Both the position numbers and the translations under genes were made by a program. From NCBI GenBank assembly GCA_963828165.1, contig CAWHDR010000001.1:608001-672000 (forward strand): a DNA stretch of 64,000 nucleotides. The letters run 5' to 3'. This document shows, piece by piece, positions 5,759-64,000 of the stretch (position 1 is its first letter; each line of letters begins with the position of its first letter). The DNA comes from an uncultured Chloroflexia bacterium (GTDB taxonomy: Bacteria; Chloroflexota; Limnocylindria; Limnocylindrales; CSP1-4). Below the pieces are notes generated by a model. The model was given only the letters and a program-made list of their open reading frames with translations. It was not told the DNA's origin and ran no database searches.

Positions 5759-5777
5759 CGATCGCGTGCGCCCCTGA

Positions 5778-8245: not shown

Positions 8246-8365
8246 CGGATCCTCCATCGGCTTGTCGATGGTCGGGATGGTCCGGCATCCAGGTTCTATT
8301 GCCTCTCGCGTTCCGCCAGATGGAGCGCCTGTTTCGAGTGGCGAGACGTCGTCCCGGGGCCGTGC

Positions 8366-10053: not shown

Positions 10054-10101
10054 GGCCGTCATGGTGACAGCCCGCGCGTCCATCGGGGTATCGTCGCGAG
10101 C

Positions 10102-44096: not shown

Positions 44097-44195
44097 CGCC
44101 GCCAAGGGTAGGCCATCACCGCGATCATCAGGCGGTCCCGAACACCAAGGCCGGACACGGTGCGCTACGCTCGCGGCCGTTCGCAGGAGGACCAT

Positions 44196-45728
44196 GTGCG
44201 CCCGAGCCTGAACATGCTCGCCCCCGAGCTCATCGAGCGGATCGTCGACGAGGCGAAGCGGGTGCTGGCCGAGGTCGGGATGGAGATCCGCGGGGCGGAG
44301 ATGCGTCGCCGGCTGCTCGAGGCGGGTCTCCCGACGAACGCCACGGGCGAGCGCGTGCTGTTCCCGAGGGCCGTCGTGGAGCGAGCGATCGCGGACGCGC
44401 CGCGCGCGTTCACGCTGTACACACGCGACGGGGAGCCGCATGCCGACCTCGGCGGCGATCGCGTCCATTTCGTCCCGGGCTCGTCAGGCCTCAAGACCCT
44501 GGACCATCGGACCGGAGGGGTCCGCCTCGCGAACTCCACCGACTTCGTCGAGTACGTCCGCCTCGCCGACGGCCTGGAGCACATCGCCTACCTGGCGACG
44601 GCGTTCTCGACGAACGAGGACATCGAGCCCCAGGTGTCCGATGCGTGGCGCCTGTACATGACGCTCACCAACTCCAAGAAGCCGGTCGTGTCGGGCGCCT
44701 TCACGGAGCACGGCGTCGGTCGGATGGTCGAGATGATGCAGCTCTTTCGGACCGACCGCGCCGACCTCATCGCGCGCCCCATGTCGATCTTCACTATCAC
44801 CGCCACCGGCAACTTCCGGTACAGCGAGGACTCCTGCCAGAACCTCATCGACTGCGTCGAGGCGGGCATCCCGGTCGAGATCGTGCCGGTGACGCTCATG
44901 GGCCTGATCGCGCCGGTCACGACCGTCGGCGCGACGGTCTTCCACACGGTGGACGTGCTGGCCGGCATCACCATGGCCCAGGTCATCAAGCCCGGGGCGC
45001 CGGTGCTGTTCGGCGGAGCGCCGGCAACGTTCCACATGAAGGTGGCGAGCTCGCCGATGTCCGCCATCGAGGCGCTCCAGCTGGATGCCGCCTACGTCGC
45101 GGTCGCCAAAACGCTCGAGCTGCCATGCCAGTCGTACATGGCCCTCTCGGACGGGCCGATCCTCGACGCCCAGGCCGGCGCGGAGACGTTCGGGAGCGCG
45201 TTGATCGCAGCGTTGGCTGGCGTGAATTCCGTCAGCGGCCCCGGCATGCTGGACTTCTTGCTGGTCTTCAGCCTGCCCAAGCTTGTCTTCGACAACGAGA
45301 TGTGCGGCCAGGCGCTGCGCTTCGTGCGCGAGATCAAGCCGATCGACGACCTGCCGGTGGGTGCGCTCATCGACCAGCTGATGGCGGATCAGCACTTGAT
45401 CATGGCCGACCACACGACGGCCAACTGGCCGAGCGAGCTGTACCTGCCGTCGACCATCGTCGAGCGGGATAACCGCGAGAACTGGACGAAGGCCGGGGCC
45501 AAGGACACGTACCAGCGCGCGATCGAAGAGGTCGATCGGCGGCTCGCCGCGTACCGGCCGCTCGACACGGATCCGGCGATCGATGCCGAGCTTCGGAGGA
45601 TCATCGCCTCAGGCCTGGAATCGCAGACCGAGCTGCCGTACGTGCCGCCCGCCGCGGAGCCGACGGCGGCGGCCCTTGCGCAGCAGGCCGGACCCGTGCG
45701 CCGTCGCAACCCGCGGCGCGGCGGCTGA
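44196..45728 (+). CDS. Trimethylamine methyltransferase (MttB) superfamily protein, non-pyrrolysine
   Basis: [21 protein letters not shown]...DAQAG.E and GPGML motifs; AGGAGG RBS; no internal TAG. Confidence 0.88.
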
Positions 45729-45735
45729 CCGGACG

Positions 45736-46434
45736 GTGCCGACCGAGCCATCAGCCGACGCGGCCAAGGAAACGCGGACCACGTCGGACGACACGCTTCC
45801 CGAGCAGCCCATCGGTCGCGAAGGGCGCCTGGTCCGTCTCCGCGAGGCCACGCGTCGGGACGCCGCGGTCGTGGATGCGCGGGACGCCGATCCTGCGGTC
45901 CGCGGCGAGTTCAACGACCTGGGCCAGCCGCCGCCCAAGCCACTCGCAGAGCAGCTCGCGGGCGGCAAGCGGATGGTGAGCGCGGAGCGAGGGCGACTCT
46001 TCGTCGAGCGCCTCGAGGATGGGGCGCTCATCGGTGACGTGAGCTGGCATCCGGTCATGTACGGACCGAACGAGCAGTCGCGGGCCCTGAACATCGGGAT
46101 CGCGCTCTACCCCGACGCCCGTGGCCACGGCTTCGGGGCGGAGGCGCAACGGTTGCTGGCGGAACTACTCCTCGAACGGTTCGACGTGCAGCGCGTCGAG
46201 GCCAGCACGGATGTCGACAACGTGGCGGAGCAGCGGTCGCTGGCCAAGGCGGGCTTCACGAGGGAGGGAGTGGTCCGCCGGGCGCAGTTTCGCGCGGGAG
46301 CACACCACGACCTTGTCACCTACTCGTTCGTACGTGACGACCTCGAACACGGCGTTCCGCGGGGCTCGCGGACGAGTGATGGCCGGCGCGGGGACCGCGC
46401 CGGCCATCGTGACTGCGTTCGACGCGGAGACTAG
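45736..46434 (+). CDS. GNAT acetyltransferase (RimJ/RimL-like)
   Basis: IGIAL.P.ARGHGFG, RVEAST...N.A..R.L.KAGF.REG motifs. Confidence 0.88.
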   Translation: MPTEPSADAAKETRTTSDDTLPEQPIGREGRLVRLREATRRDAAVVDARDADPAVRGEFNDLGQPPPKPLAEQLAGGKRMVSAERGRLFVERLEDGALIGDVSWHPVMYGPNEQSRALNIGIALYPDARGHGFGAEAQRLLAELLLERFDVQRVEASTDVDNVAEQRSLAKAGFTREGVVRRAQFRAGAHHDLVTYSFVRDDLEHGVPRGSRTSDGRRGDRAGHRDCVRRGD

Positions 46435-46658
46435 CGGTCGTCCAATAGCTGCGGCTCGCCGGTGCCCGGCAGGAGCAGGTCAGCGTCGAAGGCGGCGTCC
46501 GCCTCCGACCACTCCCGGTTCTCCTCGCGGTGGGCGAGGATGTGGAAGAGGATCCACAGCGCGATCCCGATGATCGCGAGCGGCACCTCCGTGCCCGGGA
46601 ACGGATACAGCGGCCCGATGTCGGCCGGGTTGCTGAACGACGTGAGTCCGGTGTTCAT
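46431..46658 (-). CDS. Small single-TM protein coupled to Amt
   Basis: 75 aa with IGPLYPFPG.E plus a TM helix; ATGA overlap with the amt stop; GGAGG RBS. Confidence 0.75.
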   Translation of the reverse strand: MNTGLTSFSNPADIGPLYPFPGTEVPLAIIGIALWILFHILAHREENREWSEADAAFDADLLLPGTGEPQLLDDR

Positions 46659-48097
46659 GGTGCCTCCCGCGAATCAGGTGACCGGCGCGCCCCGTCGACG
46701 ACGAGTCCCTCCTGCTTCTCGACCTGCTCGAAGCCGGTGTAGGTCCGTGCGAAGTACGGGTACGACGAGTCGGTCGTGTTCGTGTCCAGACCGGCCAGCT
46801 CGACGCGGTACGGGACGCGCAGGATGCCGGCGGCCTTGAGGACGCGGGCAAGGACGTAGAACGGGGCAAAGCCAAGGACGCCGAACATGATGAAGGCGCC
46901 GATGATGTTGCCGATGGGGTTGATGGCGGGGAATCCATCGGCCGTGGTGCCGAAGAACGGGGCGGCGCTGCCCGCGAGCGGCGCTGCAGCCGGGTAGCCC
47001 CAGAGCAGGAACCCGGCGATGATGACGCCGAACGTGCCGGCGTATCCGTGGACGGCAACGGCACCAACGGCGTCGTCGATCCTGAACCGACGCTCCACGT
47101 AGTAGTGCATCCGGTACGCGATGGTGGCGCCGACGCCGCCGACGATCATCGCCTGGATCGGGTGATACAGGTCGTTGCCTGCCGACGCCGAGATGATGCC
47201 GGCCAGGCCGGCGGACAGCGTCCAGTAGGGCTGGCCCTTGCTGAGGATGAACCCTGCCATCATCCCGCCGGACAGGGACATCAGGAAGTTGAACGTGATG
47301 CCCGACAGGGTCGTCGGCATCAGGTAGATGTTCGTGGCCGAGAAGAACGGCTCCCCCTCGGTCCCGATGTTGAAGACCGGGATGTTGCAGGCGGCGTAGA
47401 AGCCCCAGAAGCCCGTGTAGATGAGCAGGAGCCCGACGCACGCCATCCAGACGTTGTGCGGTGGGATGTTCCGGATCTCCCCGTTCGGCCCGAACCTCCC
47501 GATGCGTGGCCCGAGGACGATCAGCACGGCCAGCGCAGCGCCGCCAGCGATGGCGTGGATGACACCGGACGCGTACGCGTCGTGGTAGCCCATGAGCTGG
47601 ACCATCCACCCGTTCGGGGACCAACCCCAGGCGGCATCGATGATCCACGTCACGGAACCGATCATGAAGGCCATGATCAGGAACGCACCCGTCCGGACGC
47701 GCTCGATGATGGCCCCCGAGATGATCGAGGCCGCCGTCCACGAGAACAGCAGGAACGCCGCCCAGAAGACGCCGGTGATCCGGTCGCCCATGTTCACGCC
47801 CATGAGCGGCGACCACGGGTAGAAGCCGTCCGCGAGTGGATCGACGCCCATGCCGTTGTTGATGAACGGCCCGTGGATGAACGCGAAGTAGATCCACCAG
47901 CCGAAGAAGAAGAACGTGACGGTGACGATCGGGATGACCATCACGTTCTTGATCAGCACGTGCTGGAGGTTCTTCCGCCGTGCGATCCCGACCTCGTAGG
48001 CCGCGAAGCCCGCGTGGATCAGGAACATGAAGACGACCGTCACCCAGTAGTAGAACTCGGTGAACAGGACGTTCAGGGAATCGGTCAGATCGGACAT
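46655..48097 (-). CDS. amt: Ammonium/methylammonium transporter (Amt family)
   Basis: ISGAIIER, W.W...GW, LGPRIG, GFWGF and DDAVGAVAVHG motifs; about 11 TM helices. Confidence 0.88.
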   Translation of the reverse strand: MSDLTDSLNVLFTEFYYWVTVVFMFLIHAGFAAYEVGIARRKNLQHVLIKNVMVIPIVTVTFFFFGWWIYFAFIHGPFINNGMGVDPLADGFYPWSPLMGVNMGDRITGVFWAAFLLFSWTAASIISGAIIERVRTGAFLIMAFMIGSVTWIIDAAWGWSPNGWMVQLMGYHDAYASGVIHAIAGGAALAVLIVLGPRIGRFGPNGEIRNIPPHNVWMACVGLLLIYTGFWGFYAACNIPVFNIGTEGEPFFSATNIYLMPTTLSGITFNFLMSLSGGMMAGFILSKGQPYWTLSAGLAGIISASAGNDLYHPIQAMIVGGVGATIAYRMHYYVERRFRIDDAVGAVAVHGYAGTFGVIIAGFLLWGYPAAAPLAGSAAPFFGTTADGFPAINPIGNIIGAFIMFGVLGFAPFYVLARVLKAAGILRVPYRVELAGLDTNTTDSSYPYFARTYTGFEQVEKQEGLVVDGARRSPDSREAP

Positions 48098-48203
48098 ACC
48101 CTCCCTCACCAAATGACGGGACGAGACAGCATGCGGCGACACACTCCGGCCACCGCTCGGTGGGTCGCGGGACTGGGTCGCCTGGGTCGCCCTCCTTCCT
48201 CCC

Positions 48204-48851
48204 CTACCGTTCGCCCGGTCGATCCTCCGGATCGAGCTCGACCGTGATGGACAGGAACCGGGCCGGAAGCACGCTCAGGCGCTCCGGCCCGTGTGGGATC
48301 CGGCCGTCGAACATCAGGGAGTCGCCGGGGTCCATGTCGTAGGTGTGCCGGCCATACCGATACACGAACGAGCCCTCGAGGGCGTACAGGAACTCGACAC
48401 CCTCGTGCTGGAACAGCGGGAACGTCTCCCGCTGCTCGGTCAAGGTGACGAGGAAGGGCTGCACTCGCCGCTGGGCGCCCTTCGCCGCGGCGAGCAGCTC
48501 GTAACGATGCCCGTGGCGCGTCCCCTGACGGATGAGCTCGATGCCGTCGCCCGCGCGCACGTACGACGCGTCGCGTTCTTCCTCGAAGCCTCGGAAGAAG
48601 GTGGTGACCGGGACCTCCAGCGCCTGCGACAGGCGCGCCAGCGTCCGCAGGCTCGGGGAGGTCTGGGCATTCTCGATCTTCGAGATCATGCCGAGCGAGA
48701 GCCCGGCTCTGTCGGCGACATCCTGGAGTGTCAGACCGAGCCGTCGCCGTTCCTCGCGCAGACGGTCACCGATGGCCTGCGTGATGGCGTCCTCGAGAAA
48801 GGCCGCCTCATCCAGGTGCAGGGTCGCGAGGACATCGTCCGGTGCTGCCAT
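48204..48851 (-). CDS. XRE-family HTH regulator with cupin domain
   Basis: LTLQDVA...LS.GMISKIEN..SPSL; HEGVEF.Y...G, PGDSL.F and PHG cupin motifs. Confidence 0.92.
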   Translation of the reverse strand: MAAPDDVLATLHLDEAAFLEDAITQAIGDRLREERRRLGLTLQDVADRAGLSLGMISKIENAQTSPSLRTLARLSQALEVPVTTFFRGFEEERDASYVRAGDGIELIRQGTRHGHRYELLAAAKGAQRRVQPFLVTLTEQRETFPLFQHEGVEFLYALEGSFVYRYGRHTYDMDPGDSLMFDGRIPHGPERLSVLPARFLSITVELDPEDRPGER

Positions 48852-49049
48852 CCACCGCTCCGCGGCACCCTCTACCCTCCGGGGTGCGTCCGCGAGCGTA
48901 CACCATCAGGAAACACGCATGTCGGCAAACCTGCGCGCAAAGTTGCACGCGAGTGGATGCCGTGCCGTATCATCTTCGCCACGAGTGGAGCGACGGCCAC
49001 CGGCACCGGTGGTCCCTCGCGCGGCGCTTAACCGGTGGTGGAGTCGATC

Positions 49050-49979
49050 ATGTGTGGCATCGCTGGCTTCCTGTCCAAGCAAGACGATCCGGCGCCGGTC
49101 GGGCGGATCATGTCGGACATGCTCACGAGTCTTGCCCGGCGCGGCCCCGACTCGGTCGGCATGGCCCTGTACCGGACGGAGCCCTCGCCGCGCAGCGCGT
49201 GCTGGATCAGGCTCCCTGAGAGCGACCCGCAGGCACACGCCCAGCGGATCCTCACCGGCCTCGCCGGCGTCGGCGACGTCACACAGGTCGAGCAGCATGA
49301 GGGCCTGATGCGCGTCGAGCTCGCGACAAGCGCGGATGGTGCCGCCGTTCGTGCCGCTGTCGAGCAGGGTTCGGACGAGATCGAAGTCGTGAGCTACGGC
49401 AATCAGCTCGAGCTCGTCAAACAGGTCGGCCACCCGGACGCCCTGGAGCGGGCCTTCTCGATGGAATCGTTCCGGGGCAGCCATGCCATCGGGCACACCC
49501 GACTCTCGACCGAGAGCCGCGTGGACCTCACCCACTCGCAGCCCTTCTGGACACGCGGCGTGGCCGACGTCGCGACCGTCCACAACGGCCACATCACCAA
49601 CTACCACAAGCTGCGGCGCCTCTACGAGCAGCAGGGCGTCCGCTTCTTTTCCGAGAATGACTCGGAGGTCATCGGCGTCTACCTCGCCGACCAGCTGGGC
49701 CAGGGCCTCAGCCTGGAGCAGGCAGTGGAGCGCTCCCTCGACGACTTCGACGGGTCCTTCACCTACTTCGTCGCGAGCGGCGACGCCATCGGGTTCGCCC
49801 GCGACCCGTTCGCGCTGAAGCCGCTGGTCATCGTCGAAACGGACGACTACGTCGCCATCGCCAACGAGGAGATCGCCATCCGTGCGGCCCTCGGCCCGGC
49901 CGGCGTCGCGCACGAACCCTCCGGCCACGTCTTCAAGCTCTGGCACCGCACTGACGCGGCGACCTCGGTCGCCGCCTGA
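49050..49979 (+). CDS. mgsA: N-methylglutamate synthase subunit A (class II glutamine amidotransferase, GlxB)
   Basis: MCGIAG Ntn start, RGPDS, GHTRLSTES, HNG.I.N and ENDSE motifs; context. Confidence 0.85.
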   Translation: MCGIAGFLSKQDDPAPVGRIMSDMLTSLARRGPDSVGMALYRTEPSPRSACWIRLPESDPQAHAQRILTGLAGVGDVTQVEQHEGLMRVELATSADGAAVRAAVEQGSDEIEVVSYGNQLELVKQVGHPDALERAFSMESFRGSHAIGHTRLSTESRVDLTHSQPFWTRGVADVATVHNGHITNYHKLRRLYEQQGVRFFSENDSEVIGVYLADQLGQGLSLEQAVERSLDDFDGSFTYFVASGDAIGFARDPFALKPLVIVETDDYVAIANEEIAIRAALGPAGVAHEPSGHVFKLWHRTDAATSVAA

Positions 49980-50692
49980 TGACGGCCGTCACCGGCCATC
50001 CGTCGACCCTCGAACTCGACGCCGGCGACCGGGACATCCGGGATATCAACCGGGACATCCGGTCGGCCCTTGCCGAGGGCCGCGAGACCGTCGTCCGGAA
50101 CCCTGGGGCGCGGCACAACCTGGGCGTGGCGCTCCTGTCACCGGGCTTCGTCACGTTCGAGGGCAGCGTCGGCTATTACTGCGCCGGCATGAGCGACGGC
50201 GCGACCGTCCGCATCCGCGGCAGCGCCGGCTGGGGCGTCGCAGAGGGGATGCTGTCGGGCCTGGTCACGGTGGAGGGGAACGCAGGCAACGGTGCCGCCG
50301 CGTCCATCCGCGGGGGCACGGTCGTCGTCCACGGCGATTGCGCCGCCCGGGCGGGCATCACGATGAAGGGCGGCCGCCTGCTCATCGGCGGGAATGCCGG
50401 GTACATGACCGCGTTCATGATGCAGAAGGGATACGTCGCGATCGCCGGCGACGCGGGCGATGCCCTCGCGGACTCGATGTACGCAGGCACGGTCTACGTG
50501 GCCGGCGACATCGCCTCGCTCGGCAACGACACGGTCGTGGAGCCAGCCTCGAAGGAGGACCAGGCCATGCTGGAGGCGACCTTCGCCGAGTTCGGGCTGC
50601 CGAAGCCGCGGCCGTTCAAGCGGATCGTCGCCGGCCGCAAGCTCTGGAACTTCGAGAAGCACGAGCTGGAGACGTGGCGGTCCGCGTTGTGA
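49979..50692 (+). CDS. mgsB: N-methylglutamate synthase subunit B (GXGXG, GlxC)
   Basis: Gly-rich beta-helix repeats (GSVGYYCAGM, GNAG, GDAGDALADSMY). Confidence 0.85.
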   Translation: MTAVTGHPSTLELDAGDRDIRDINRDIRSALAEGRETVVRNPGARHNLGVALLSPGFVTFEGSVGYYCAGMSDGATVRIRGSAGWGVAEGMLSGLVTVEGNAGNGAAASIRGGTVVVHGDCAARAGITMKGGRLLIGGNAGYMTAFMMQKGYVAIAGDAGDALADSMYAGTVYVAGDIASLGNDTVVEPASKEDQAMLEATFAEFGLPKPRPFKRIVAGRKLWNFEKHELETWRSAL

Positions 50693-52041
50693 GCGATCAC
50701 TCGGTGCCGCGCGATCCGCAGGGCCTCCGGACGAGCCCGGTCTACACGCCGTCCGTCATCGGCGAGATCCAGGAGAAGGCGGCGCTCGGGCGCTACCTCA
50801 TCCGTGGGTTCGGGACGCTGCGCAGCCGGCCGCTCCCGTCGCTCGACGACCTCACGTTCCTGCCTGCGTCGCTGACCCGGATCCCCCTGGAGGGATATCG
50901 CGAGAAGTGCGTCACGACGACTGTCCTCGGGACACGCTATGCGGAGCAGCCGATCAGGCTCGACATCCCGATCATGATCACCGGCATGAGCTACGGGGCG
51001 CTGTCGCTCAACGCGAAGACCGCCCTGGCCCGAGGCGCGAGCATGGTCGGCGGCTCGACGACCTCCGGCGACGGCGGGATGCTCCGCGCCGAGCGCGAGA
51101 ACTCGAAGACGATGATCGTCGAGGTCCTTCCCAGCCGTTACGGAGCGAACGTCCACCACCTTCGGGAGGCCGACGGGATCGAGCTCACCATCGGCCAGGG
51201 CGCCAAACCGGGCACGGGCGGGCTGCTGCTCGGCTCCAAGGTGTCCGAGGAGATCGCGGAGATCCGCGACCTCCCGCCGGGTGTCGACCAGCGCTCGCCG
51301 GCACGCCACCCGGACTTCCTCGGCCCGGATGACATGACCCTCAAGATCGAGGAGCTCCGCGAGGCGACCGACCACCGGGTCCCGATCTTCGTCAAGATCG
51401 GGGCGACGCGCACCTTCGACGACGTCAAGCTCGCCGCCAAATGCGGGGCGGACGTCGTCGTCGTCGACGGCATGGAGGGCGGCACCGCCGCCTCCCCCGA
51501 GATCCTCCAGGACCATACCGGGATCCCGACGCTCGCCGCCATCGTCGAGGCGCGTCGGGGACTCGAGGATATCGGGATGTACGGCAAGGTCCAGATCATC
51601 GCGGCGGGCGGCATCCGGTCCGGGGTGGACGTGGCCAAGGCCATCGCGCTCGGTGCGGACGCGTGCTACATCGGCACGGCCGCGCTCATCGCCCTCAACT
51701 GCAACGCGCCCCTCTACGTGGAGGACTACGAGGCGCTCGGCACGCAGCCCGGCGCCTGCCACCACTGTCATACCGGCCGCTGCCCGGTCGGCATCACGAC
51801 GCAGGACCCAGACCTGATGGCCCGCCTGCCCGTCGATGAGGCCGCAGAGCGCGTCGCGAATTTCCTCACGGCCATGACCCTGGAGGTCCAGATGCTGGCG
51901 CGCGCCTGCGGCAAGGCCGACATCCACGACCTTGACCCCGACGATCTCCGCGCGCTGACCATGGAGGCCGCGGCGATCACCGGCATCCCGCTCGTCGGGA
52001 CCCACTGGGTGCCGGGCGCCCCGACCCCGGGCCACGGCTGA
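50689..52041 (+). CDS. mgsC: N-methylglutamate synthase subunit C (FMN-binding, GlxD)
   Basis: GMSYGALS, GQGAKPG.GG, DGMEGGT and CHHCHTGRCPVGI motifs. Confidence 0.88.
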   Translation: MSDHSVPRDPQGLRTSPVYTPSVIGEIQEKAALGRYLIRGFGTLRSRPLPSLDDLTFLPASLTRIPLEGYREKCVTTTVLGTRYAEQPIRLDIPIMITGMSYGALSLNAKTALARGASMVGGSTTSGDGGMLRAERENSKTMIVEVLPSRYGANVHHLREADGIELTIGQGAKPGTGGLLLGSKVSEEIAEIRDLPPGVDQRSPARHPDFLGPDDMTLKIEELREATDHRVPIFVKIGATRTFDDVKLAAKCGADVVVVDGMEGGTAASPEILQDHTGIPTLAAIVEARRGLEDIGMYGKVQIIAAGGIRSGVDVAKAIALGADACYIGTAALIALNCNAPLYVEDYEALGTQPGACHHCHTGRCPVGITTQDPDLMARLPVDEAAERVANFLTAMTLEVQMLARACGKADIHDLDPDDLRALTMEAAAITGIPLVGTHWVPGAPTPGHG

Positions 52042-52053
52042 GCCGGCAGTCGG

Positions 52054-52335
52054 GTGTCCTTCCTCATCGGGTGCCCGCTGTGCGGTCCGCGGGATGTAGC
52101 CGAGTTCCGCTACGGCGGCGAGGTCCAGGCGCGCCCCAGCCCGGGGTCTGAGGTGGCAACGTGGTCGGGGTACCTCTACGGACGGACGAACGTGGCGGGC
52201 GTCGAACGGGCCTGGTGGTTCCATCGGGCCGGGTGCCGGCGCTGGTTCCAGGCCGAGCGCGACACGCGCACGAACCACGTGCTCCGGGTCGGCTGGACAC
52301 TCACGCCCGGTGCGCGCGGGACGCCCGATGGCTGA
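52054..52335 (+). CDS. soxD: Sarcosine oxidase / NMG dehydrogenase delta subunit
   Basis: CPLCGPR..EF.YGG, W.H..GCRRWF..RDT Zn motif. Confidence 0.9.
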   Translation: MSFLIGCPLCGPRDVAEFRYGGEVQARPSPGSEVATWSGYLYGRTNVAGVERAWWFHRAGCRRWFQAERDTRTNHVLRVGWTLTPGARGTPDG

Positions 52336-55986: not shown

Positions 55987-57194
55987 TCGGGCCGCTTCGT
56001 CGCTGGCGCGTCACCCGCCCGCGCGAGCTGCGGACGAGCTACGACGTCGTCATCATCGGCGGCGGCGTCCACGGCCTCGCCATCGCCTACGAGCTCGCCA
56101 GGCGCGGCGTTCGGAACGTGGCCGTCCTCGAGAAGTGGTACATCGGCGCCGGTGGCAGCGGCCGGAACACCGCCATCGTGCGCTCCAACTACCGCACCCC
56201 GGAGGGCGTCGCGTTCTATGACGAATCGGTGCGCATCTACGAGCGGCTCTCGGTCGAGCTCGGATTCAACGTCCTGTTCAGCCAGCACGGGCACCTGACC
56301 CTCGCCCATACCGACTCGGCCGTCGCCGGCCTGCGCGTTCGGGCCGAGGTCAACCAGCTGCTCGGTGTCGACTCCGTGGTCCTCGACCGGGAGGAGATCC
56401 GGGACCTCGCGCCCGCCCTCGACCTCACGGACCGGCCGCGCTACCCCATCCATGCGGCGCTGTACCATCCCCCGGGCGGGATCATCCGGCATGACGCGGT
56501 GGTGTGGGGCTATGCCCGGCGGGCGGCCGAGATGGGCGTCGATATCCACCAGGGCGTCGAGGTCACCGGTATCGACCTCGCCGACGGCCGGATCGCCGGC
56601 GTCCAGACGAACCAGGGGCCGATCCGTGCCGGGACGGTCGTGAATGCCACGGCCGGCTGGGCCACCACCATCGCGGACATGGCCGGCGTGCGCCTGCCGA
56701 TCGTCACGCATCCGCTCCAGGCGCTCGTCACGGAGCCGCTCAAGCCGTTCTTGAACCCTGTCCTCGTGTCGGCCACGTTGCACGTGTACGTGAGCCAGAC
56801 CGACCGCGGCGAACTGGTGATCGGGGCGGAGATCGATCCGTACGCGTCGTACAGTCATCGCTCGACACTCGCCTTCATGGAGACCTCCGCCGCGCATGTC
56901 CTCGAGCTGCTGCCGTCCGTCGCCGGCGTCCGCGTCCTGCGCCAGTGGGCCGGGATCTGCGACATGACACCCGACTTCAGTCCGATCATCGGGACGGTCC
57001 CCGACGTACCCGGGTTCATCCTGGACGTCGGCTGGGGGACCTACGGGTTCAAGGCGGGCCCGGTCTCCGGCCGGCGTGTCGCGGAACTCATCGCGACCGG
57101 GCGCACGCCCGAGGTGCTGGCGCCCTTCACCATCGAACAATTCTCCACGGGGACGCTCATCGGCGAGAAGGCAGCGGCGGCGGTGTCGCACTAG
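55983..57194 (+). CDS. soxB: Sarcosine oxidase / NMG dehydrogenase beta subunit
   Basis: GGGVHGLA, GRNTAIVRSNY, RHDAVVWGYAR, HPLQA.VTEP, GWGTYGFKA and AAAVSH motifs. Confidence 0.92.
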   Translation: MIGPLRRWRVTRPRELRTSYDVVIIGGGVHGLAIAYELARRGVRNVAVLEKWYIGAGGSGRNTAIVRSNYRTPEGVAFYDESVRIYERLSVELGFNVLFSQHGHLTLAHTDSAVAGLRVRAEVNQLLGVDSVVLDREEIRDLAPALDLTDRPRYPIHAALYHPPGGIIRHDAVVWGYARRAAEMGVDIHQGVEVTGIDLADGRIAGVQTNQGPIRAGTVVNATAGWATTIADMAGVRLPIVTHPLQALVTEPLKPFLNPVLVSATLHVYVSQTDRGELVIGAEIDPYASYSHRSTLAFMETSAAHVLELLPSVAGVRVLRQWAGICDMTPDFSPIIGTVPDVPGFILDVGWGTYGFKAGPVSGRRVAELIATGRTPEVLAPFTIEQFSTGTLIGEKAAAAVSH

Positions 57195-57226
57195 CGGCGA
57201 AGCTCCAGGCAGGCAAGGAGGCGGAC

Positions 57227-58612
57227 ATGGTCGAGGCCACGGCGGACGCTGAGCCCAATCAGGGCGACATCGAGCGGCGGCTCAAGGATGACGGCGTCAC
57301 CTACATGCTCGCCCAGTGGGTCGACATCCACGGCACGCCGCGCTGCAAGGGCGTCCCGGCCAGCGCCTTCGACCAGTTCGTCGGCGGGAGCGCGGGCTTC
57401 GCCGGCGCGGCCACGGTCGGCATGGGGCAGGGACCACATGACCACGACCTCATCGGCATGCCGGATCTCGCGACCTACACCCCCGTGCCCTGGGAGGAGG
57501 GGGTCGCCCGCTTCGCCTGCGACATCCAGGTCGATGGCCAACCGTGGCCGTACTGCTCGCGAACCGCCCTGAAGCGACAGATCGAGCGTCTGGCCGGGAT
57601 CGGCTACGTGATCAAGATCGGCGTCGAGGCCGAGCACATGCTGGTGACGCGCCGCCCGGACGGCACGATCGCGCCGTTCGATCCGTCCGGCTTCGACACC
57701 CTCGAGAAGCCCTGCTACGACTTCAAGAGCCTGGCTGCGAGTCTCCCCTACCTGCGCACCCTGGTCACCTACATGGAGGACCTTGGCTGGGAACCGTATG
57801 CCTCGGACCACGAGGATGGGACCGGCCAGTTCGAGCTCAACTGGAAGTACGCCGACGCGCTGACCACGGCCGACCGCTACACCTTCTTCAAGATGATGAC
57901 CAACCAGGTCGCCCAGCGGTACGGAGCCATCGCGACGCACATGCCGAAGCCGTTCAGCAAGCTGACCGGCAACGGCAGCCATTTCCACTTCTCGCTGTGG
58001 GACGAAGACGGGCAGAACGCCTTCATCGGCGAGGATGACGCTCGTGGTCTCGGGCAGTCGAAGCTCGCCTACCACTTCCTGGCCGGGCTGCTGACCCACG
58101 CCCGGGCGCTGTCGGCGATCATCGCGCCGACCGTCAACTGCTACAAGCGGCTGTCGATGGGCGCCTACCTGACCGGGGCGCGCTCCGGGTTCACCTGGAC
58201 GCCGGCATTCATCACGTACGGCGACAACAACCGGACCCAGATGTTCCGGGTCCCCGACCCCGGTCGATTCGAATGCCGGGTCGTGTCCGGCGCGGTCAAC
58301 CCGTACCTTGGGACCGCGGCGTTCATCGCGGCGGGGATGGACGGCATCGAGCGCGAGCTGGACCCGGGCGATCCACTCACCGGCCGGAACATGTACGAGA
58401 CACCCCTCGAGGATGCTCGCCGCGAGGGCCTCCGCTTCCTGCCGCAGAGCCTGTCCGAGGCCATCGACGAGCTCGAGGCGGATGAGGTCGTCCAAGCCGG
58501 GCTCGGGCCAGAGCTTGCCGCCGAGTTCATCCGGGTGAAACGCCAGGAGTGGGTGCGCTACCACAGCGACGTGAGCCGCTGGGAGATCGACCAGTACCTG
58601 ACGCTGTTCTGA
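57227..58612 (+). CDS. gmaS: Gamma-glutamylmethylamide synthetase (glutamine synthetase-like, GlnT)
   Basis: AGFAG, PCYD, DHED..GQFE.N, MPKPF...GNG.H and GDNNRT motifs; lies between mgd and dmm. Confidence 0.85.
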   Translation: MVEATADAEPNQGDIERRLKDDGVTYMLAQWVDIHGTPRCKGVPASAFDQFVGGSAGFAGAATVGMGQGPHDHDLIGMPDLATYTPVPWEEGVARFACDIQVDGQPWPYCSRTALKRQIERLAGIGYVIKIGVEAEHMLVTRRPDGTIAPFDPSGFDTLEKPCYDFKSLAASLPYLRTLVTYMEDLGWEPYASDHEDGTGQFELNWKYADALTTADRYTFFKMMTNQVAQRYGAIATHMPKPFSKLTGNGSHFHFSLWDEDGQNAFIGEDDARGLGQSKLAYHFLAGLLTHARALSAIIAPTVNCYKRLSMGAYLTGARSGFTWTPAFITYGDNNRTQMFRVPDPGRFECRVVSGAVNPYLGTAAFIAAGMDGIERELDPGDPLTGRNMYETPLEDARREGLRFLPQSLSEAIDELEADEVVQAGLGPELAAEFIRVKRQEWVRYHSDVSRWEIDQYLTLF

Positions 58613-58643
58613 TGCCCGTTCGATGCGGGCGTGAGGTGGAGAG

Positions 58644-59777
58644 ATGACCGCATCCTGGCGTTTCTCGGCGATCGCCGACCGGCACCGCGCACTTGGCTCT
58701 GCGCTCGAGGACTGGAACGGCATGGGCACGGCGTGGACGTACGACAAGGACATTCACGAGGAGCACCGGGCCATCCGGACGAAGGCCGGGCTGATGGACG
58801 TCTCGGGGTTGAAGAAGGTCCACCTCGTCGGGCCGCACGCGGCGCACGTCCTGGACCGAGCCACCACGCGCGACGTGCACCGGATCTACCCGGGGCGCTC
58901 GGCCTACGCGTGCATGCTCGACGAGCGAGGGATGTTCGTGGAGGATTGCATCGTGTACCGGACGGGCCCCACGGCATGGATGGTCGTCCACGGCTCGGGC
59001 ACGGGCCACGAGGAGCTGCAGCGCGCAGCCGTGGGCAAGAACGTCGCCATGCTGTTCGACGATGACCTGCACGACCTGTCCCTCCAGGGGCCCCTCGCGG
59101 TGGACTTCCTGCAACGCCACGTGCCGGACATCCGGGAGCTGCCCTACTTCCACCACGTGCAGACCCGTCTGTTCGACGCACCGGTGATGCTGTCGCGGAC
59201 CGGCTACACGGGCGAGCGCGGCTACGAGATCTTCTGCCGCGCCCAGGACGCGCCGATGCTCTGGGACACGATCCTGTCCGAGGGCGCGGACATGGGCATC
59301 ATCCCGTGCCGGTTCACGGTGCTCGACATGCTCCGGGTCGAGAGCTACCTGCTGTTCTACCCGTACGACAATTCGCAGATGTACCCGTTCGAGGACGAGC
59401 CGCCAGGCGACACGCTCTGGGAGCTCGGCCTGCAGTTCACGGTGACCCCCGGCAAGACCGGGTTCCGCGGCGCGGAGGAGCACGCCAGGCTGAAGGACCG
59501 GGAGCGGTTCAGGATCTTCGGCGTGCTCGTGGACGGCGACACCGCGACGGCCGAAGGCGACGAGCTGTGGGCCGATGGCCGCAAGGTCGGGGTCATCACC
59601 TGCGGGATGTACTCGACGCTCACCGACCGGTCCATGGCCATCGCCCGGATGGACGTGGACCGGGCCGTGCAGGGCAGCCCCCTGGAAGTGCGCGGTGCCA
59701 GCGTCAACGGACCCGCCACCGCGCACGCGCTGCCGTTCGACGACCCGCAGAAGACGAAGCGGAACGCGGTGGGCTGA
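58644..59777 (+). CDS. dmmD: GcvT-family THF-binding protein, dimethylamine monooxygenase-associated
   Basis: MDVSGL, LQGP, SRTGYTGERGYE and LRVES motifs; precedes dmmABC. Confidence 0.78.
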   Translation: MTASWRFSAIADRHRALGSALEDWNGMGTAWTYDKDIHEEHRAIRTKAGLMDVSGLKKVHLVGPHAAHVLDRATTRDVHRIYPGRSAYACMLDERGMFVEDCIVYRTGPTAWMVVHGSGTGHEELQRAAVGKNVAMLFDDDLHDLSLQGPLAVDFLQRHVPDIRELPYFHHVQTRLFDAPVMLSRTGYTGERGYEIFCRAQDAPMLWDTILSEGADMGIIPCRFTVLDMLRVESYLLFYPYDNSQMYPFEDEPPGDTLWELGLQFTVTPGKTGFRGAEEHARLKDRERFRIFGVLVDGDTATAEGDELWADGRKVGVITCGMYSTLTDRSMAIARMDVDRAVQGSPLEVRGASVNGPATAHALPFDDPQKTKRNAVG

Positions 59778-59825
59778 TCGTGCGGCAAGCCCGGCGACCG
59801 GCGACTCGGGTGGAGGCCTGACCCG

Positions 59826-60437
59826 ATGCTGGTCGACGGCATCAAGAGCCGCCCGGTCTACACGACCCTCGCAGCTCGCCGCGGGCGGCTGCACCTGATC
59901 CTCACCGACGATGGGGGCACGCCAGCCGTCCTGGGCATGATCGGCGCCGCGTCCGACGAGTTCCTCGCCCGCGCCGTCCTGATCCACGCACCGTCGCCCC
60001 ACGGACGCGACGAGGGCGGCGCCCTTGGCCGCAGCCTCGCGGGGGCCGGGACGGGCACGGTCCTCCTGGCAGGCGACGAGGACGAGGCGGTCGCCGCGCT
60101 CGACAGCGCGCTCGCCGACGCGCGCATGGGCACGCAGGTCTATGTGGCGGGCACGGAGAACCTCATCGCACGCGTCGTCGAGACCGCGGTGGCGGCCGGC
60201 CTCGAGCTCGGTGCCATCATGGCCGAGCACCGCGGTTCCCACGAGCGTCGGGTCCAGTGCGTCCACTGCAAGGCGATCACCGATCACGTCACGACGCAGC
60301 CGGTCCGGTGCGCAGGGTGCGGGCTCGCGCTGCTCGTTCGGGACCACTACTCGCGACGGATCGGCGCGTTCCAGGGCGTGTCTATCGACGCCGAGGAACC
60401 CGGCACGGCTCCGGACCCGACGGCGCTGTTCGCGTGA
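59826..60437 (+). CDS. dmmA: Dimethylamine monooxygenase subunit A
   Basis: IKSRPVY, YVAGTE and RVQCVHCK...C..CG..L.VRDHYSRR motifs. Confidence 0.85.
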   Translation: MLVDGIKSRPVYTTLAARRGRLHLILTDDGGTPAVLGMIGAASDEFLARAVLIHAPSPHGRDEGGALGRSLAGAGTGTVLLAGDEDEAVAALDSALADARMGTQVYVAGTENLIARVVETAVAAGLELGAIMAEHRGSHERRVQCVHCKAITDHVTTQPVRCAGCGLALLVRDHYSRRIGAFQGVSIDAEEPGTAPDPTALFA

Positions 60438-61492
60438 GCGAGACCACGGTGACGGCGCCCGCGGTACCGGCGCCCACGGACACCACCGCCGGGGCGGGCA
60501 CGACCGGCGGCGCGGGCACGACCGCCAAGCGTGTCCAGGCGACCAAGTTGACCGTGATCGTCACCGAGGTAGCGGACGTCACCGCGCAGATCCGCCGCTT
60601 CCGGTTCGCGGCGCCCGACGGCCGTCCGCTCCCCTCCTTCTCGGGTGGCGCGCACGTCATCGTCGAGCTCCAGGATGGTCAGACGCTGCGGCGCAACCCG
60701 TACTCGCTCATGAGTTCGCCGACCGACACGTCGAGTTACGCCATCAGCGTGCGACGCGACGATGCCGGGCGGGGCGGCTCCCTCTTCCTGCATCGCGAGG
60801 TCCGCGTCGGCCAGGCCCTGACCATCAGCCGGCCGGTCAACCTCTTCCCCATCGACTGGCGGGCGCGTCGACACCTGCTCATCGCCGGGGGGATCGGGAT
60901 CACCCCGTTCCTTGCGCAGCTCGTGCAGCACGAGGCCGCCGGGAGCGACATGGAGCTGCACCTCGCCGTCCGCGGCCGAGAGCACGGCGCGTATCTCGAC
61001 GACCTGGAGCGCCGCTACGGCGACCGCGTCCATGTCCACTGCGACGACATCGGCGACCGCATCCCCCTCGACCGGCTGCTCGACGACCAGCCGCTGGGGA
61101 CCCATCTCTACGTGTGTGGCCCCGCCCCGATGATGGCGTGGGTGCTGGACACCGCGGCCGCGGCGGGCTGGCCGGCGCAGGCGCTCCATAGCGAGCGCTT
61201 CCTGGCCCCGGCCTCCGGAACGCCGTACGACATCACGCTCGCCCTGACCGGTCGGACCGTCCGCGTGGGCGAGCACCAGAGCATGCTCGAGGCGATCGAG
61301 GCCGCCGGCGTCGATGCCCCCTACATGTGCCGGGGCGGTGCCTGCGGGGAGTGCGAGACGCCCGTGATCTCGTACGAGGGAGGCATCCTGCACAACGACC
61401 ACTTTCTCTCGCCGGAGGACAAGGCCTCCGGGCGCAAGATCATGCCCTGCGTCTCGCGCTTCGAAGGCGCGTCCATCGTGCTGCAGCGATGA
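60434..61492 (+). CDS. dmmB: Dimethylamine monooxygenase reductase (PDR/VanB-type FMN/2Fe-2S)
   Basis: GGAH, NPYSL, GRGGS, AGGIGITP, YVCGP and CRGGACGEC...C motifs. Confidence 0.85.
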   Translation: MSETTVTAPAVPAPTDTTAGAGTTGGAGTTAKRVQATKLTVIVTEVADVTAQIRRFRFAAPDGRPLPSFSGGAHVIVELQDGQTLRRNPYSLMSSPTDTSSYAISVRRDDAGRGGSLFLHREVRVGQALTISRPVNLFPIDWRARRHLLIAGGIGITPFLAQLVQHEAAGSDMELHLAVRGREHGAYLDDLERRYGDRVHVHCDDIGDRIPLDRLLDDQPLGTHLYVCGPAPMMAWVLDTAAAAGWPAQALHSERFLAPASGTPYDITLALTGRTVRVGEHQSMLEAIEAAGVDAPYMCRGGACGECETPVISYEGGILHNDHFLSPEDKASGRKIMPCVSRFEGASIVLQR

Positions 61493-61517
61493 CCCGGCGT
61501 CGGGCGGAGGATGGGCC

Positions 61518-62567
61518 ATGACCGCGATCGAGTTCCGTGACGAGACGTTCCGCGACGACTTCTCATTCCGCAACAGCGCGGCCGGGATCCGGCGCTTCCC
61601 ATTCCCGTTCCACGAGGACCGCTATATGTACGCGGTCAATATCGAGCCGCACACGCCCGGGCCCGTCGGCACGGCGTACGAACACCCGATCGATGTCGAC
61701 GAGCACTACGTCGCGGAGATGCGCGATCGGGCGCTGGTGCTGGCCGAGGACCCGCTGCGCTGCCAGTCGCTACCGCACATGACGCTGGCCGGCTGGGATC
61801 TGCTCGAGCTGCTCATGGAATGCCAGGCCACGTCGTACCCGGAGCATTTCACGCTGGAGCGGGACGGGGACCGATGGCATTGGATCAATCGCCCGCTCGG
61901 GATCGACGACACCTTCACCTTCGGCGACGAGTCGACCCTGCCGTACGGCCCGATGGAGTACGTCACGCGGCAGAGCCAGGGCGATTTCGTCCTCGTCGAC
62001 CAGCGCGACGGCAACCTGTGGATGGATGCCGGGATGGTGACGACGCAAGCCGACTGGTCGCTCGACTTCGACCTCGGGATGAACTTCATGGAGTGGCACG
62101 GCCCGGTACCGCTCGCGCACGAGCTCGGCGTCTTCGACCGGGCGCTGAAGTTCCTGCTCAACCTCCGCCCCGGCCAGCCTGTCCGCCGCCTGAACTGGAC
62201 GATGACCATCAACCCGAGGCTCGACACGAGTCCCGAGCGCTACCCCCACTGGGGCACGGACCGCGCCACGGTCACGATGGACAACGTCGGCGAGAAGGTG
62301 CATCTGCGCGTCGAATTGCAGAGCTTCTGGCGGCTCCCCCGCTCCAACGCCATCGTGTTCCCGATCCGCTGCTACCTCATCAGCATGGCCGAGCTCGTGA
62401 CGATCCCCAAGTGGGCGCGCCGGCTCCATCGGGTCCTCGAGACGCTGCCGCCGGAGCTCGCCGACTACAAGGGGCTGACCCGCTATCGCCAGACGACCGT
62501 CGACTGGCTGGCGCGGCACGACGACGGCGCACCGACCTCACCTGGGTTCTTCCCGGACCCGGAGTAG
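61518..62567 (+). CDS. dmmC: Dimethylamine monooxygenase heme subunit (DUF3445)
   Basis: FPFPF..D.Y.Y.VN.EPH, WHGPVP, RRLNW and RVELQ..RLPRSN motifs. Confidence 0.85.
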   Translation: MTAIEFRDETFRDDFSFRNSAAGIRRFPFPFHEDRYMYAVNIEPHTPGPVGTAYEHPIDVDEHYVAEMRDRALVLAEDPLRCQSLPHMTLAGWDLLELLMECQATSYPEHFTLERDGDRWHWINRPLGIDDTFTFGDESTLPYGPMEYVTRQSQGDFVLVDQRDGNLWMDAGMVTTQADWSLDFDLGMNFMEWHGPVPLAHELGVFDRALKFLLNLRPGQPVRRLNWTMTINPRLDTSPERYPHWGTDRATVTMDNVGEKVHLRVELQSFWRLPRSNAIVFPIRCYLISMAELVTIPKWARRLHRVLETLPPELADYKGLTRYRQTTVDWLARHDDGAPTSPGFFPDPE

Positions 62568-62572
62568 CGAGC

Positions 62573-63160
62573 TCAGCGCTCGCTGTCGGCCTGGGGGTCG
62601 GCCTCCGGCCGGCCGGTGAACGTGGTCGCCGGTGTGCCGACGACGTGGTCCGGGCGCGGCCCTGGGTCGCGGCGGATGTCCTCGATCGGCTCGGGGACGA
62701 GCTCACCGCCACGGACGGTCGCGCCCAGGACGATGGCCGCGGACACCAGCACCACGTTCTTGATGATGTACTGGCCTTCGAGCGTCGGAGCGAACGGGAA
62801 GATGCCGAACGTCTCGGTCGGGAACAGGAACAGCGGCGTGATCGTTCCCAGCATCTGGACGAACAGGATGAGCAGGGTGAACCGCATCCAGCGTCCGATG
62901 AACAGGCCGATCCCGATGGCCATCTCCCAGACCGCCAGGATCGGGAGCGCCACCGCGGTGGGGATCGCGCCCAGGGTGAGGGCCTCGATGGTCCGCCCGG
63001 CCAGGGTCTCGGCAGGACTGAGGCCCGGGAACAGCTTGAGGGCCCCGAACCAGAAGAAGACGATGCCCAGGGCGAAGCGCAGGAGGGTCAGCCCGTGGGC
63101 GGCCATCCATTCCGTGATGCGCCGATCGAGATGCTCGAACCAGCGCGGCGCTCTCGTCAT
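62573..63160 (-). CDS. DoxX-like membrane protein
   Basis: LRFALG.VF.WFG.LK.FP..SPAE and GQYIIKN motifs. Confidence 0.8.
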
Positions 63161-63231
63161 GGTCCGCATCGCCTCCGTTGTGTGGTCGTCGGTTGTACCA
63201 CGGAACGGCGGGCGGGGCGGTGCCTGGTCAC

Positions 63232-64000
63232 CTAGGCCGTTCCGGCCTCGATCTGGCGTTTCCGACGAGCCACGAATGCATCGAGCGCCTCCGCGACAGA
63301 AGGGTCCAGCGGTGGCGGGACCGCGTCGGCCAGCAGGCGTTTCCAGATGCCGTTGGCCCGTTCCGTGGCGGTATGCGAGCCGTCCGCCTGCCACGTCTCG
63401 AAGTTGCGCCAGTCGGACACCATCGGCTCGTAGAAGGCGGTCTCGTAGCGCTCCAGCGTATGGGCCGTCCCGAAGAAATGGCCACCCGGCCCGACGTCAA
63501 CCATCGCATCGAACCCCAGGGATCCCTCGTCGACGACCATCGGCTGGAGGACCTCCGAGATCATCTGCAGGATCTCGGCGTCGACGATGAGCTTCTCGTA
63601 CGAGGCCGTCAGGCCGCCCTCGAGCCAGCCGGCTCCCTGGTACAGCAGGTTCACGCCGCCCATCACGGCGCCCCAGACCGCCATCTCGGCCTCGTACGCG
63701 GCTTGCGCGTCGACCACGTTCGAGGCGGTCGCGTTCGACGATCGCCACGGCAGCCCGTAGCGCCGCGCCATCTGGCCGCTCGCGAACTGGGATTTGACCG
63801 ACTCGGGCGTCCCGAACGCCGGTGCTCCGGTGCGCATGTCGACGTTCGAGGTGAACGCGCCGTAGACCATGGGCGCCCCCGGCCGCACGATCTGGGCCAG
63901 GGCCACGAGAAACAGCGCCTCGGCGTTCTGCTGGGCGATCGCACCAGCAAGCGAGACCGGGCTCATCGCCCCGGCCAGCGTGAATGGCGTCGCGACGACC
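63232..64000 (-). CDS. Second MttB-superfamily methyltransferase (5' end beyond the window)
   Basis: [46 protein letters not shown] and VGPGGHF motifs. Confidence 0.88.

Follow-up and report, generated by a model that had tools for sequence, protein, structure and literature searches.

The N-methylglutamate (NMG) pathway, made up of GmaS, MgsABC and MgdABCD, is known from Methylocella, Methyloversatilis and Methylobacterium. Those methyltransferases of the MttB superfamily that contain no pyrrolysine (Pyl) and have been characterized yield products such as dimethylglycine, not dimethylamine (DMA). For the step from DMA to methylamine the available part of PMC5520151 describes a 1:1 conversion, assayed by expression of dmmABC. 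The characterized non-Pyl MttB proteins act on quaternary amines, none being known to make DMA in the part of PMC13080624 at hand, and in one of them, MtgB, glycine betaine is bound by residues Y97, R312, H348 and F356 (PMC13080624). Aerobes that combine corrinoid- with O2-dependent demethylation have already been published (PMC12478193, in part), and for metagenome-assembled genomes (MAGs) of Candidatus (Ca.) Limnocylindria the accessible section of PMC11264602 lists corrinoid methyltransferase genes and nothing more. A literature search found no description of the dmm genes or the NMG pathway in Chloroflexota. Here we analyze a 64,000-nucleotide stretch of DNA (the window, G000:C1:608001-672000) from the genome G000 of an uncultured bacterium of this phylum, in which the genes of DMA monooxygenase and of the NMG pathway form one block between two mttB genes, MttB1 and MttB2.

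Our reading, to which we give a probability of roughly 70%, is that positions 46375-62585 are a 16.2-kb DMA and methylamine catabolic island which moves laterally among Ca. Limnocylindria and is unrelated to its MttB neighbors. The pathway assignment itself is ordinary and well supported by homology; the novelty lies in the host and in an island that is mobile and chimeric.

G000 is an assembly of 3.31 Mb in 6 contigs (87.7% complete, 2.1% contamination). Since the window lies on a contig of 2.9 Mb (C1) with even composition (GC 0.67-0.74), a mis-binned fragment is ruled out. Because the GC content is about 70%, reading frames were picked by third-position GC (GC3), and families were assigned with Pfam and NCBIfam; coordinates are window positions unless prefixed G000:C1. 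The host belongs to the Chloroflexota, class Ca. Limnocylindria, common and uncultured bacteria of soil and freshwater, and is not a proteobacterium. An earlier note, made from the letters of the window alone, had guessed the phylum correctly: G257 (= L028) and G041 (= L027) share the GTDB genus of G000, and among one-genome-per-species contigs the nearest relatives of DmmC and GmaS are in MAGs titled Candidatus Limnocylindrales or Limnocylindria, uncultured Chloroflexia and uncultured Anaerolineaceae, the Limnocylindrales being placed in Chloroflexota by NCBI. Limnocylindria genes (GmaS or MttB1) 82-97% identical to those of the window also occur under Actinomycetes, Saccharimonadales, Patescibacteria and Steroidobacteraceae MAG titles (L114, L200, L201, L259), probably on mis-binned contigs.

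The age of the island can be judged from the genome G301. Blastn of G000 against G301 gives 91-92% DNA identity across 46375-62585, and the island proteins are 80-98% identical (most 90-98%; SoxG 80%), whereas outside the island MttB1 is 82% and a PyrC-like core protein 77% identical. The island-less genomes G059 and G089 stand closer to G000 (MttB1 90-91%, PyrC-like protein 86%). Because the identity of the island to G301 exceeds that of the core, the island must be of much more recent date in G000 than its genomic surroundings.

The same unit is found at other places in relatives, and its boundaries and differing genomic sites are directly observed. From a 75-codon open reading frame (ORF) at its left end to dmmC the block is intact in G301, G303 and G257. 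It lies on the opposite side of MttB1 in G257 and G306 and 78 kb from MttB1 in G301; MttB1 and island are on different contigs in G303, G305 and G308, only a C-terminal MttB1 fragment was found in G309, and MttB1 was not found in G307. In G301 a gene for a 449-aa tyrosine recombinase (L024:11139-12488) begins about 90 bp after dmmC, with a recombinase fragment 6 kb further (L024:16988-17254); this is the only island copy beside which a mobility gene was seen, and in G000 none was noticed either inside the island or at its borders. GC-rich hairpins at both island ends are shared with G301.

The distribution is patchy. In an even sample of the class (301 genomes from 57 genera, G000 included) DmmC occurs in three genomes, all of one genus, and GmaS scores above its cut-off in seven; G296, G159, G123, G087, G249 and G096 (flagged unpublished) have only GlnA-type matches below the cut-off and count as non-carriers.

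The two halves of the island differ in their relatives. Compared with Mesorhizobium-type loci, the dmm side is close (DmmC 80-82%, DmmD 70-74%, DmmB 59-64%, DmmA 41-53% identity), as are the XRE-type regulator (52-55%) and the Amt transporter (56-61%, two loci), against 41-42% for GmaS, 34-38% for MgsA, 38-40% for MgsB, 56-57% for MgsC and 45-47% for SoxB. GmaS is 73-97% identical to copies in other Chloroflexota, and in Rokubacteria/Methylomirabilota GmaS is 69-72%, MgsC 77-79% and SoxB 70-74% identical. Among the 59 GmaS loci whose neighborhoods were examined, from several phyla, the only proteobacteria are a few labeled Desulfobacterales, of low identity (31-52%). In 12 of these loci dmmD directly follows gmaS: 11 are labeled Chloroflexota and the twelfth, L114, bears an Actinomycetes title and is probably the mis-binned contig mentioned above. 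DmmC is also found on 149 plasmid records, mostly Rhizobium megaplasmids (75-79%) and Paracoccus (65-66%), where it is accompanied by tmm, tdm, purU or folD. The island is best read as a chimera of a Chloroflexota/Rokubacteria-type NMG operon with a Hyphomicrobiales-like module of dmmDABC, regulator and amt.

A tree of DmmC was calculated from 41 rows: the window, 10 further Chloroflexota loci, 23 of 73 non-Chloroflexota loci and 7 plasmid loci. The 50 omitted non-Chloroflexota loci are nearly all further Mesorhizobium, and L153 has no full-length DmmC match. All 11 rows from Chloroflexota group together in a single clade (100/99), which, when the tree is rooted on a 45%-identical Agrobacterium paralog, falls among Alphaproteobacteria (forks 91/73 and 94/93). 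That a Hyphomicrobiales-like bacterium donated the dmm genes is suggested by their rarity and the identity contrasts, not by the tree. A Mycobacteriaceae MAG (L098) and a Terriglobia MAG (L081) also have single copies of DmmC/DmmD, which share 79% and 71-75% identity with those of the window; they are nested among alphaproteobacterial rows and are either further transfers or binning errors.

Could the cluster instead be old, vertically inherited in Limnocylindria and lost many times? We consider this unlikely. The closest relatives of the NMG half within Chloroflexota, the monophyly of the Chloroflexota DmmC rows, whose branch remains admissible as the root (see below), and the lack of a mobility gene in or beside the island of G000 would fit such a history. 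It does not sit well with a DmmC found in only three of the 301 sampled genomes and one of 57 genera, with an island that in G000 and G301 is far more alike than the core genes of the two genomes are, with at least four different genomic contexts, with a recombinase abutting the island in G301 and with a DmmC 80-82% identical to Hyphomicrobiales copies when GmaS from the same loci reaches only 41-42%.

The earlier note had described the two mttB genes as bracketing the cluster and as a possible supply of DMA. That they belong to the cluster or provide DMA finds no support in the relatives without the island. MttB1 (44196-45728, plus strand; PF06253, 267 bits) is followed by a GNAT acetyltransferase gene (45736-46434, plus strand; PF13302, 58.7 bits). 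On the other side of the island a gene for a DoxX-family membrane protein (62573-63169, minus strand; PF07681, 26.6 bits) lies downstream of MttB2, of which 255 codons of the 3' end are in the window (63232-64000, minus strand; PF06253, 392.8 bits), the whole gene being G000:C1:671250-672740 (minus strand; PF06253, 636 bits). All four are flanking residents. The earlier note had not listed the genes that stand between the block and its mttB neighbors, namely GNAT, DoxX and the 75-codon ORF.

Of five congeners all have an ortholog of MttB1 (84-91%) and four one of MttB2 (80-94%; split in G149). Three of them, G059, G089 and G149, carry the MttB pair without DmmC or GmaS. In G059 and G089 the locus reads hypothetical protein and TPP protein, then MttB1 and GNAT rightward, DoxX and MttB2 leftward, and HlyD, and only about 0.4 kb separates GNAT from DoxX. 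The DNA homology of G000 ends at 46354 (G059) or 46346 (G089) and resumes at 62683-62687 (G059, G089 and G149; at 62687 in G059). At these junctions the last ~27 codons of GNAT differ from those of the island-less congeners and the 3' end of DoxX has been replaced.

The same picture emerges from 80 species loci with an MttB1 ortholog (79-97% identity; 566 relatives in all). MttB2 lies within 10 kb of MttB1 in at least 28 of them, with gaps of 1.3-8.3 kb, a lower bound because many of these loci are short contigs. In L184, where MttB1 is 97% identical, the two mttB genes are 1.8 kb apart. An island gene is found within 10 kb of MttB1 in only two of the 80, L185 (from G304, a near-identical sibling) and L212. 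The MttB pair is ancestral and occurs widely without dmm. The convergent pairs MttB1-GNAT and MttB2-DoxX would be the older residents between which the island landed, and the bracket an accident of insertion.

Neither mttB frame, the whole MttB2 gene included, has an in-frame stop, so both proteins are non-Pyl, as the earlier note had stated. In the model of the Pyl-type trimethylamine (TMA) methyltransferase (TIGR02369, cut-off 525 bits) MttB1 scores 278.5 and the partial MttB2 (255 codons) 195.8 bits. Among structures in the PDB, MttB2 scores 342 bits with MtgB, 331 with 4yyc and 147 with Pyl-MttB, and MttB1, with 174, 119 and 146 bits, is about equally far from all three; MttB1 is also only 26-29% identical to the other MttB paralogs of G000. 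At the MtgB positions Y97, R312, H348 and F356 MttB2 has G, R, Q and G (one of four kept) and MttB1 a gap, Q, S and L (none kept), the control, an MtgB-like paralog of G000 (C1:1022 kb), having Y, R, H and G. MttB1 lacks the carboxylate-binding arginine conserved in characterized acidic-betaine enzymes. Judged by sequence, MttB1 is a divergent MttB-superfamily protein of the non-Pyl kind and MttB2 an MtgB-related non-Pyl paralog.

No cognate corrinoid protein, methyl-corrinoid:tetrahydrofolate (THF) methyltransferase or activase was found in the window or 18 kb beyond. A complete MtgBCD-like corrinoid system, composed of an MttB (734.7 bits against 4yyc), RACo, a pterin methyltransferase (NF005719, 346 bits) and an MtgC-like corrinoid protein, is encoded 350 kb away (G000:C1:~1021-1028 kb). 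The flanking MttB proteins have no corrinoid neighbors and, if active, would have to borrow this distant system. The wider region (G000:C1:1021000-1048000; L104, L105) also encodes a small protein with a Virulence_fact domain, MetH, an MTHFR-fused homocysteine methyltransferase, OpuAC, an aldehyde dehydrogenase, a DMGDH-like protein and oxidases of the dimethylglycine (DMG)/sarcosine type (Sox-like). A second corrinoid set, without MttB, lies at G000:C1:246000-250800 (L108) and comprises a URO-D-family methyltransferase, a corrinoid protein, a pterin-binding protein, RACo and a LacI-type regulator.

The notion that MttB1, MttB2 or both use the corrinoid route to demethylate a quaternary amine or TMA and pass DMA on to DmmABC, the 20-kb stretch being one functional unit, is in our estimate quite unlikely. 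The genes are adjacent in G000, G304 and L212, the island is again beside MttB1 in G257 and G306, no tmm or tdm was found, a non-acidic substrate is conceivable for MttB1 because it has lost the arginine, and corrinoid protein, activase and pterin methyltransferase exist elsewhere in G000. Yet the pair is kept without dmm and gmaS in three congeners, 78 of the 80 MttB1 loci have no island gene within 10 kb, MttB1 is 78 kb off or on another contig in G301, G303, G305, G308 and G041, GNAT, DoxX and convergent transcription stand between the mttB genes and the operon, both proteins score far under the Pyl-type cut-off, and the substrates reported for characterized non-Pyl MttB proteins in the available text are quaternary amines that do not give DMA (PMC13080624). 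A more specific version, in which MttB1 is a non-Pyl methyltransferase for some non-acidic methylamine (TMA, tetramethylammonium or choline, for instance) and the placement of the island reflects selection for a B12-then-O2 route replacing Tmm and Tdm, we regard as very unlikely. The combination of O2- and corrinoid-dependent demethylation, which the earlier note had suggested for the host, is for aerobes as such no longer new (PMC12478193, in part).

For the island itself the gene list of the earlier note was exact, in content and order, by Pfam and NCBIfam. Gene content, families and operon-like packing are directly observed: from mgsA to dmmC 12 genes of the plus strand follow each other, overlapping or no more than 48 nt apart. 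The left end is marked by the 75-codon ORF (46431-46658, minus strand), whose start overlaps the amt stop; its product has one hydrophobic helix and no Pfam match and is kept beside amt in G301 (87%), G257 (57%) and G303 (52%) and found at the left island end also in L212. There follow the gene of the Amt-family transporter (46655-48097, minus strand; PF00909, 190.9 bits), which scores 190.7 bits in TIGR00836 and so stays below the cut-off of 343.3, and that of the PuuR-like XRE-cupin regulator (48204-48851, minus strand; HTH_3 and Cupin_2), which is divergent from mgsA.

The NMG operon starts with the genes of N-methylglutamate synthase: mgsA (49050-49979), with start codon and ribosome-binding site identified, for the glutamine-amidotransferase-like subunit (GATase_6/7; protein start MCGIAG), mgsB (49979-50692) for the GXGXG subunit (PF01493, 49.9 bits) and mgsC (50689-52041) for the FMN-dependent subunit with a glutamate-synthase domain (PF01645, 344 bits). 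Next come four sox-like genes assigned to N-methylglutamate dehydrogenase (Mgd): soxD for the delta subunit (52054-52335; PF04267, 92.7 bits), soxA for the alpha subunit, in which Pfam recognizes a folate-binding GCV_T domain (52328-55249), soxG for the gamma subunit (55246-55986; GCV_T, 70.5 bits) and soxB for the FAD-containing beta subunit (55983-57194; DAO, 253 bits). The operon continues with gmaS for gamma-glutamylmethylamide synthetase (57227-58612), dmmD for the THF-binding GcvT-family subunit (58644-59777; GCV_T and GCV_T_C), dmmA (59826-60437; PF22290 and PF22289), dmmB for an FNR-type reductase with a 2Fe-2S domain (60434-61492; FAD_binding_6, NAD_binding_1 and Fer2) and dmmC for a subunit like the alpha subunit of haem-dependent oxidative N-demethylase (DUF3445; 61518-62567; PF11927, 234 bits).

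The product of gmaS passes the equivalog model TIGR03105 with 573.7 bits (cut-off 469.6), its best PDB matches are 9qur, "Glutamate--methylamine ligase" (444 bits), and 7cql (386 bits), and ordinary glutamine synthetases reach at most 242 bits; the ordinary GlnA of G000 (C1:1686750) scores 373 bits in TIGR03105. The protein is therefore GmaS and not an ordinary glutamine synthetase, as had been predicted. DmmA scores 114.1 bits in NF041259 (cut-off 60), DmmC is 77-82% identical to copies in dmm clusters of Aminobacter, Mesorhizobium and Sinorhizobium, and DmmD is 70-76% identical to the product of the gene preceding dmmABC in alphaproteobacterial clusters; DmmB (FAD/NAD and 2Fe-2S) and the co-located THF-binding DmmD are present, in the order D-A-B-C. 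A dedicated library model for Mgs and Mgd does not exist and their assignment rests on context: the 59 GmaS loci examined show mgsABC, soxDAGB and gmaS in this same succession. Family models and gene order agree in predicting a DMA monooxygenase plus NMG pathway, the function first proposed for the block.

From these assignments the following route may be drawn. DMA from outside would be oxidized by the haem/flavin/FeS enzyme DmmABC to methylamine and formaldehyde, a conversion predicted for the island from its homologs, and DmmD would put the formaldehyde onto THF. GmaS would ligate methylamine and glutamate at the expense of ATP, MgsABC would produce N-methylglutamate, and the Sox-like Mgd would oxidize it to glutamate and 5,10-methylene-THF, so that both methyl groups would enter the folate pool and the nitrogen would end as glutamate or ammonium. 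Amt may take up methylammonium or DMA or serve ammonium handling; like the substrates of the enzymes and the ligand of the regulator, we infer its cargo from this context.

The four Sox-like subunits all score below the cut-offs of the sarcosine oxidase family (SoxA 780.8 bits against 1164 in TIGR01372, SoxB 450 against 529.45 in TIGR01373, SoxD 78.7 against 116.5 in TIGR01374, SoxG 35.7 against 143.95 in TIGR01375), which, together with the position of their genes between mgsABC and gmaS, probably fits N-methylglutamate dehydrogenase. That they form a genuine sarcosine oxidase, the block being for glycine betaine, sarcosine or another N-methyl amino acid (e.g. of the homarine type) and not for methylamine, is hardly credible, for although the Sox models are the best NCBIfam matches and Mgd was recently tied to another N-methyl compound (discussion of PMC13390433, the part at hand), the scores fall short, the gene order recurs in the loci examined and a second sox-like set, at G000:C1:~1031-1045 kb, accompanies the genes for betaine, DMG and OpuAC.

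The earlier note had recorded no tmm or tdm in the window, and a search of the whole genome (87.7% complete) found none either. The Tdm model gives 13 matches in G000, all from model position 372 onward (the C-terminal GcvT half) and none above the cut-off, and a rhizobial Tdm query (tblastn) matches only from residue 403 onward. The sole match to flavin-containing monooxygenase (FMO) in G000 has 25 bits, and tblastn with rhizobial Tmm gave no match. The N-terminal domain of Tdm (DUF1989) was found in none of five dmm-bearing relatives, two of which have FMO-like matches of 20-32 bits. These organisms appear to start at DMA. Beyond methylene-THF, FolD is present in G000 (39% identity). A tandem ureohydrolase resembling dimethylguanidine hydrolase could be a source of DMA, and Limnocylindrales are mentioned in PMC11399263 (in part); this source was dropped, the two arginase-family genes of G000 being at separate loci and not in tandem.

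Several points weigh against a laterally moving island that makes its carriers users of DMA. A root placed on the DmmC branch of the Chloroflexota survives the approximately unbiased (AU) test (p = 0.344), and because of this the tree leaves room for an old dmm lineage in the phylum and does not settle the direction of dmm transfer. That the island was inserted, rather than precisely lost, at the MttB site is suggested by parsimony and the identity contrasts. In two island lineages, G000/G304 (with L212) and G257/G306, MttB1 and the island are no more than 4 kb apart, a nearness that could be due to selection and not to a hot spot of recombination. Each enzymatic step is assigned by homology to proteobacterial enzymes (PMC5520151, in part) and is to that extent a prediction. 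Since G000 is 87.7% complete, absence of tmm and tdm cannot be claimed, one of the five dmm-bearing relatives (G041) has an FMO-like gene of note (93.6 bits), and a rhizobial PurU query found only a partial-domain match in G000, which bears on the route beyond methylene-THF.

Regulation of the island would proceed from one divergent control region, from which the regulator, Amt and the 75-aa membrane protein are read leftward and the 12-gene operon rightward. This region (48852-49049, 198 bp) contains, in an alignment of four genomes, the invariant blocks GTACACCATC.GGAAA, GTTGCA, AGTGGA, TATCATCTTC, GAGTG.A and the ribosome-binding site GGTGGAG; among the blocks are hexamers like TTGCA and TATCAT and two GAGTGGA repeats. 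Scans of 44000-63999 found no promoter-like site. Two sites resembling terminators turned up, both of them on the minus strand, a number below that for shuffled sequences; at 70% GC these results are uninformative. The region is a candidate promoter and operator; because the consensus promoter scan found none, we infer this function. The regulator scores 64 bits in the PuuR model (cut-off 211), is 97% identical in G301 and is 52-55% identical to the one encoded right after dmmC in Mesorhizobium loci. The characterized master regulator of the pathway in Ruegeria pomeroyi is the AraC-type TmaR (PMC13390433, in part); the island and Mesorhizobium solve the task differently, with a regulator of the XRE-cupin type.

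One RNA-library run (X1, share 0.07) yielded contigs 90-99% alike to the island that come from relatives. Among them, one covers the soxB/gmaS junction (56951-57309) and another the gmaS/dmmD junction (58430-58792); a transcription unit, strand or level cannot be read from them.

Elsewhere in the window a PotA/PotD-like ABC transporter (1651-5758) adjoins genes of a Rieske oxygenase and a GcvT-family protein (together 1651-8257). The best model for the oxygenase is the glycine-betaine monooxygenase GbcA (209.7 bits, cut-off 670), that for the GcvT-family protein the dimethylsulfoniopropionate demethylase DmdA (325.8 bits, cut-off 410). The group may be another O2-dependent N- or S-demethylation module. 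At 8366-10083 on the minus strand a metallo-beta-lactamase/beta-CASP/RMMBL gene appears to be split into the overlapping frames 8869-10083 and 8366-9013, its Beta-Casp domain being cut at profile position 49/50, which points to a frameshift or an assembly error.

Some Limnocylindria, then, would be able to take DMA and methylamine all the way to the folate pool by a route encoded on a transferable island, adding a non-proteobacterial sink for methylated amines in soils. The island is also a clean example of a catabolic operon from two phylogenetic sources, an NMG operon of the hosts' own and a Hyphomicrobiales-like dmm, regulator and transporter module. The island-less relatives dissolve the MttB bracket, and adjacency is a poor guide here.

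How does the locus compare with the corrinoid systems described? The aerobic MtgBCD(E) glycine-betaine demethylase with split methionine synthase (PMC12478193, in part) has its like in the set at G000:C1:~1021-1028 kb, which the orphan MttB paralogs could share; unlike it, MttB1 and MttB2 at the island are without corrinoid neighbors and most betaine-binding residues are gone. The MtgB of Desulfitobacterium hafniense (PDB 2qne/9yce; PMC13080624, in part) belongs to the same superfamily and is the best PDB match of both, but of its four binding residues MttB2 keeps only R312 and MttB1 none. In two MAGs of Desulfobacter/Desulfobacterales (L163, L169) genes for an MttB (28-31%), an XRE-cupin regulator (50-52%) and a GmaS-like protein of the glutamine synthetase family (43-47%) stand side by side, possibly a link between corrinoid and gamma-glutamylation chemistry in anaerobes that is unrelated to the island.

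With the DmmDABC of R. pomeroyi, Methylocella silvestris, Paracoccus and Aminobacter (PMC5520151, in part) the island shares the genes, the order D-A-B-C and the domain set, its DmmC matching copies from Hyphomicrobiales at 77-82% identity and those on Paracoccaceae plasmids at 65-70%. It differs in its Chloroflexota host and in that dmmDABC is joined to the 3' end of the NMG operon behind gmaS, without an adjoining tmm, tdm, purU or folD, unlike Sinorhizobium meliloti pSymB or a Rhizobium plasmid. As in the rhizobial dmm clusters (Mesorhizobium, L034-L051; S. meliloti pSymB, L173) an XRE-type regulator gene accompanies dmmDABC, and an Amt gene, which the island has too, is beside dmmD in two of those loci; the regulator gene is divergent from mgsA in the island and follows dmmC in Mesorhizobium. 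All eight gene products of the NMG pathway are present, here encoded as one operon, mgsABC-mgd(D,A,G,B)-gmaS, with sequences 34-57% identical to the Mesorhizobium proteins.

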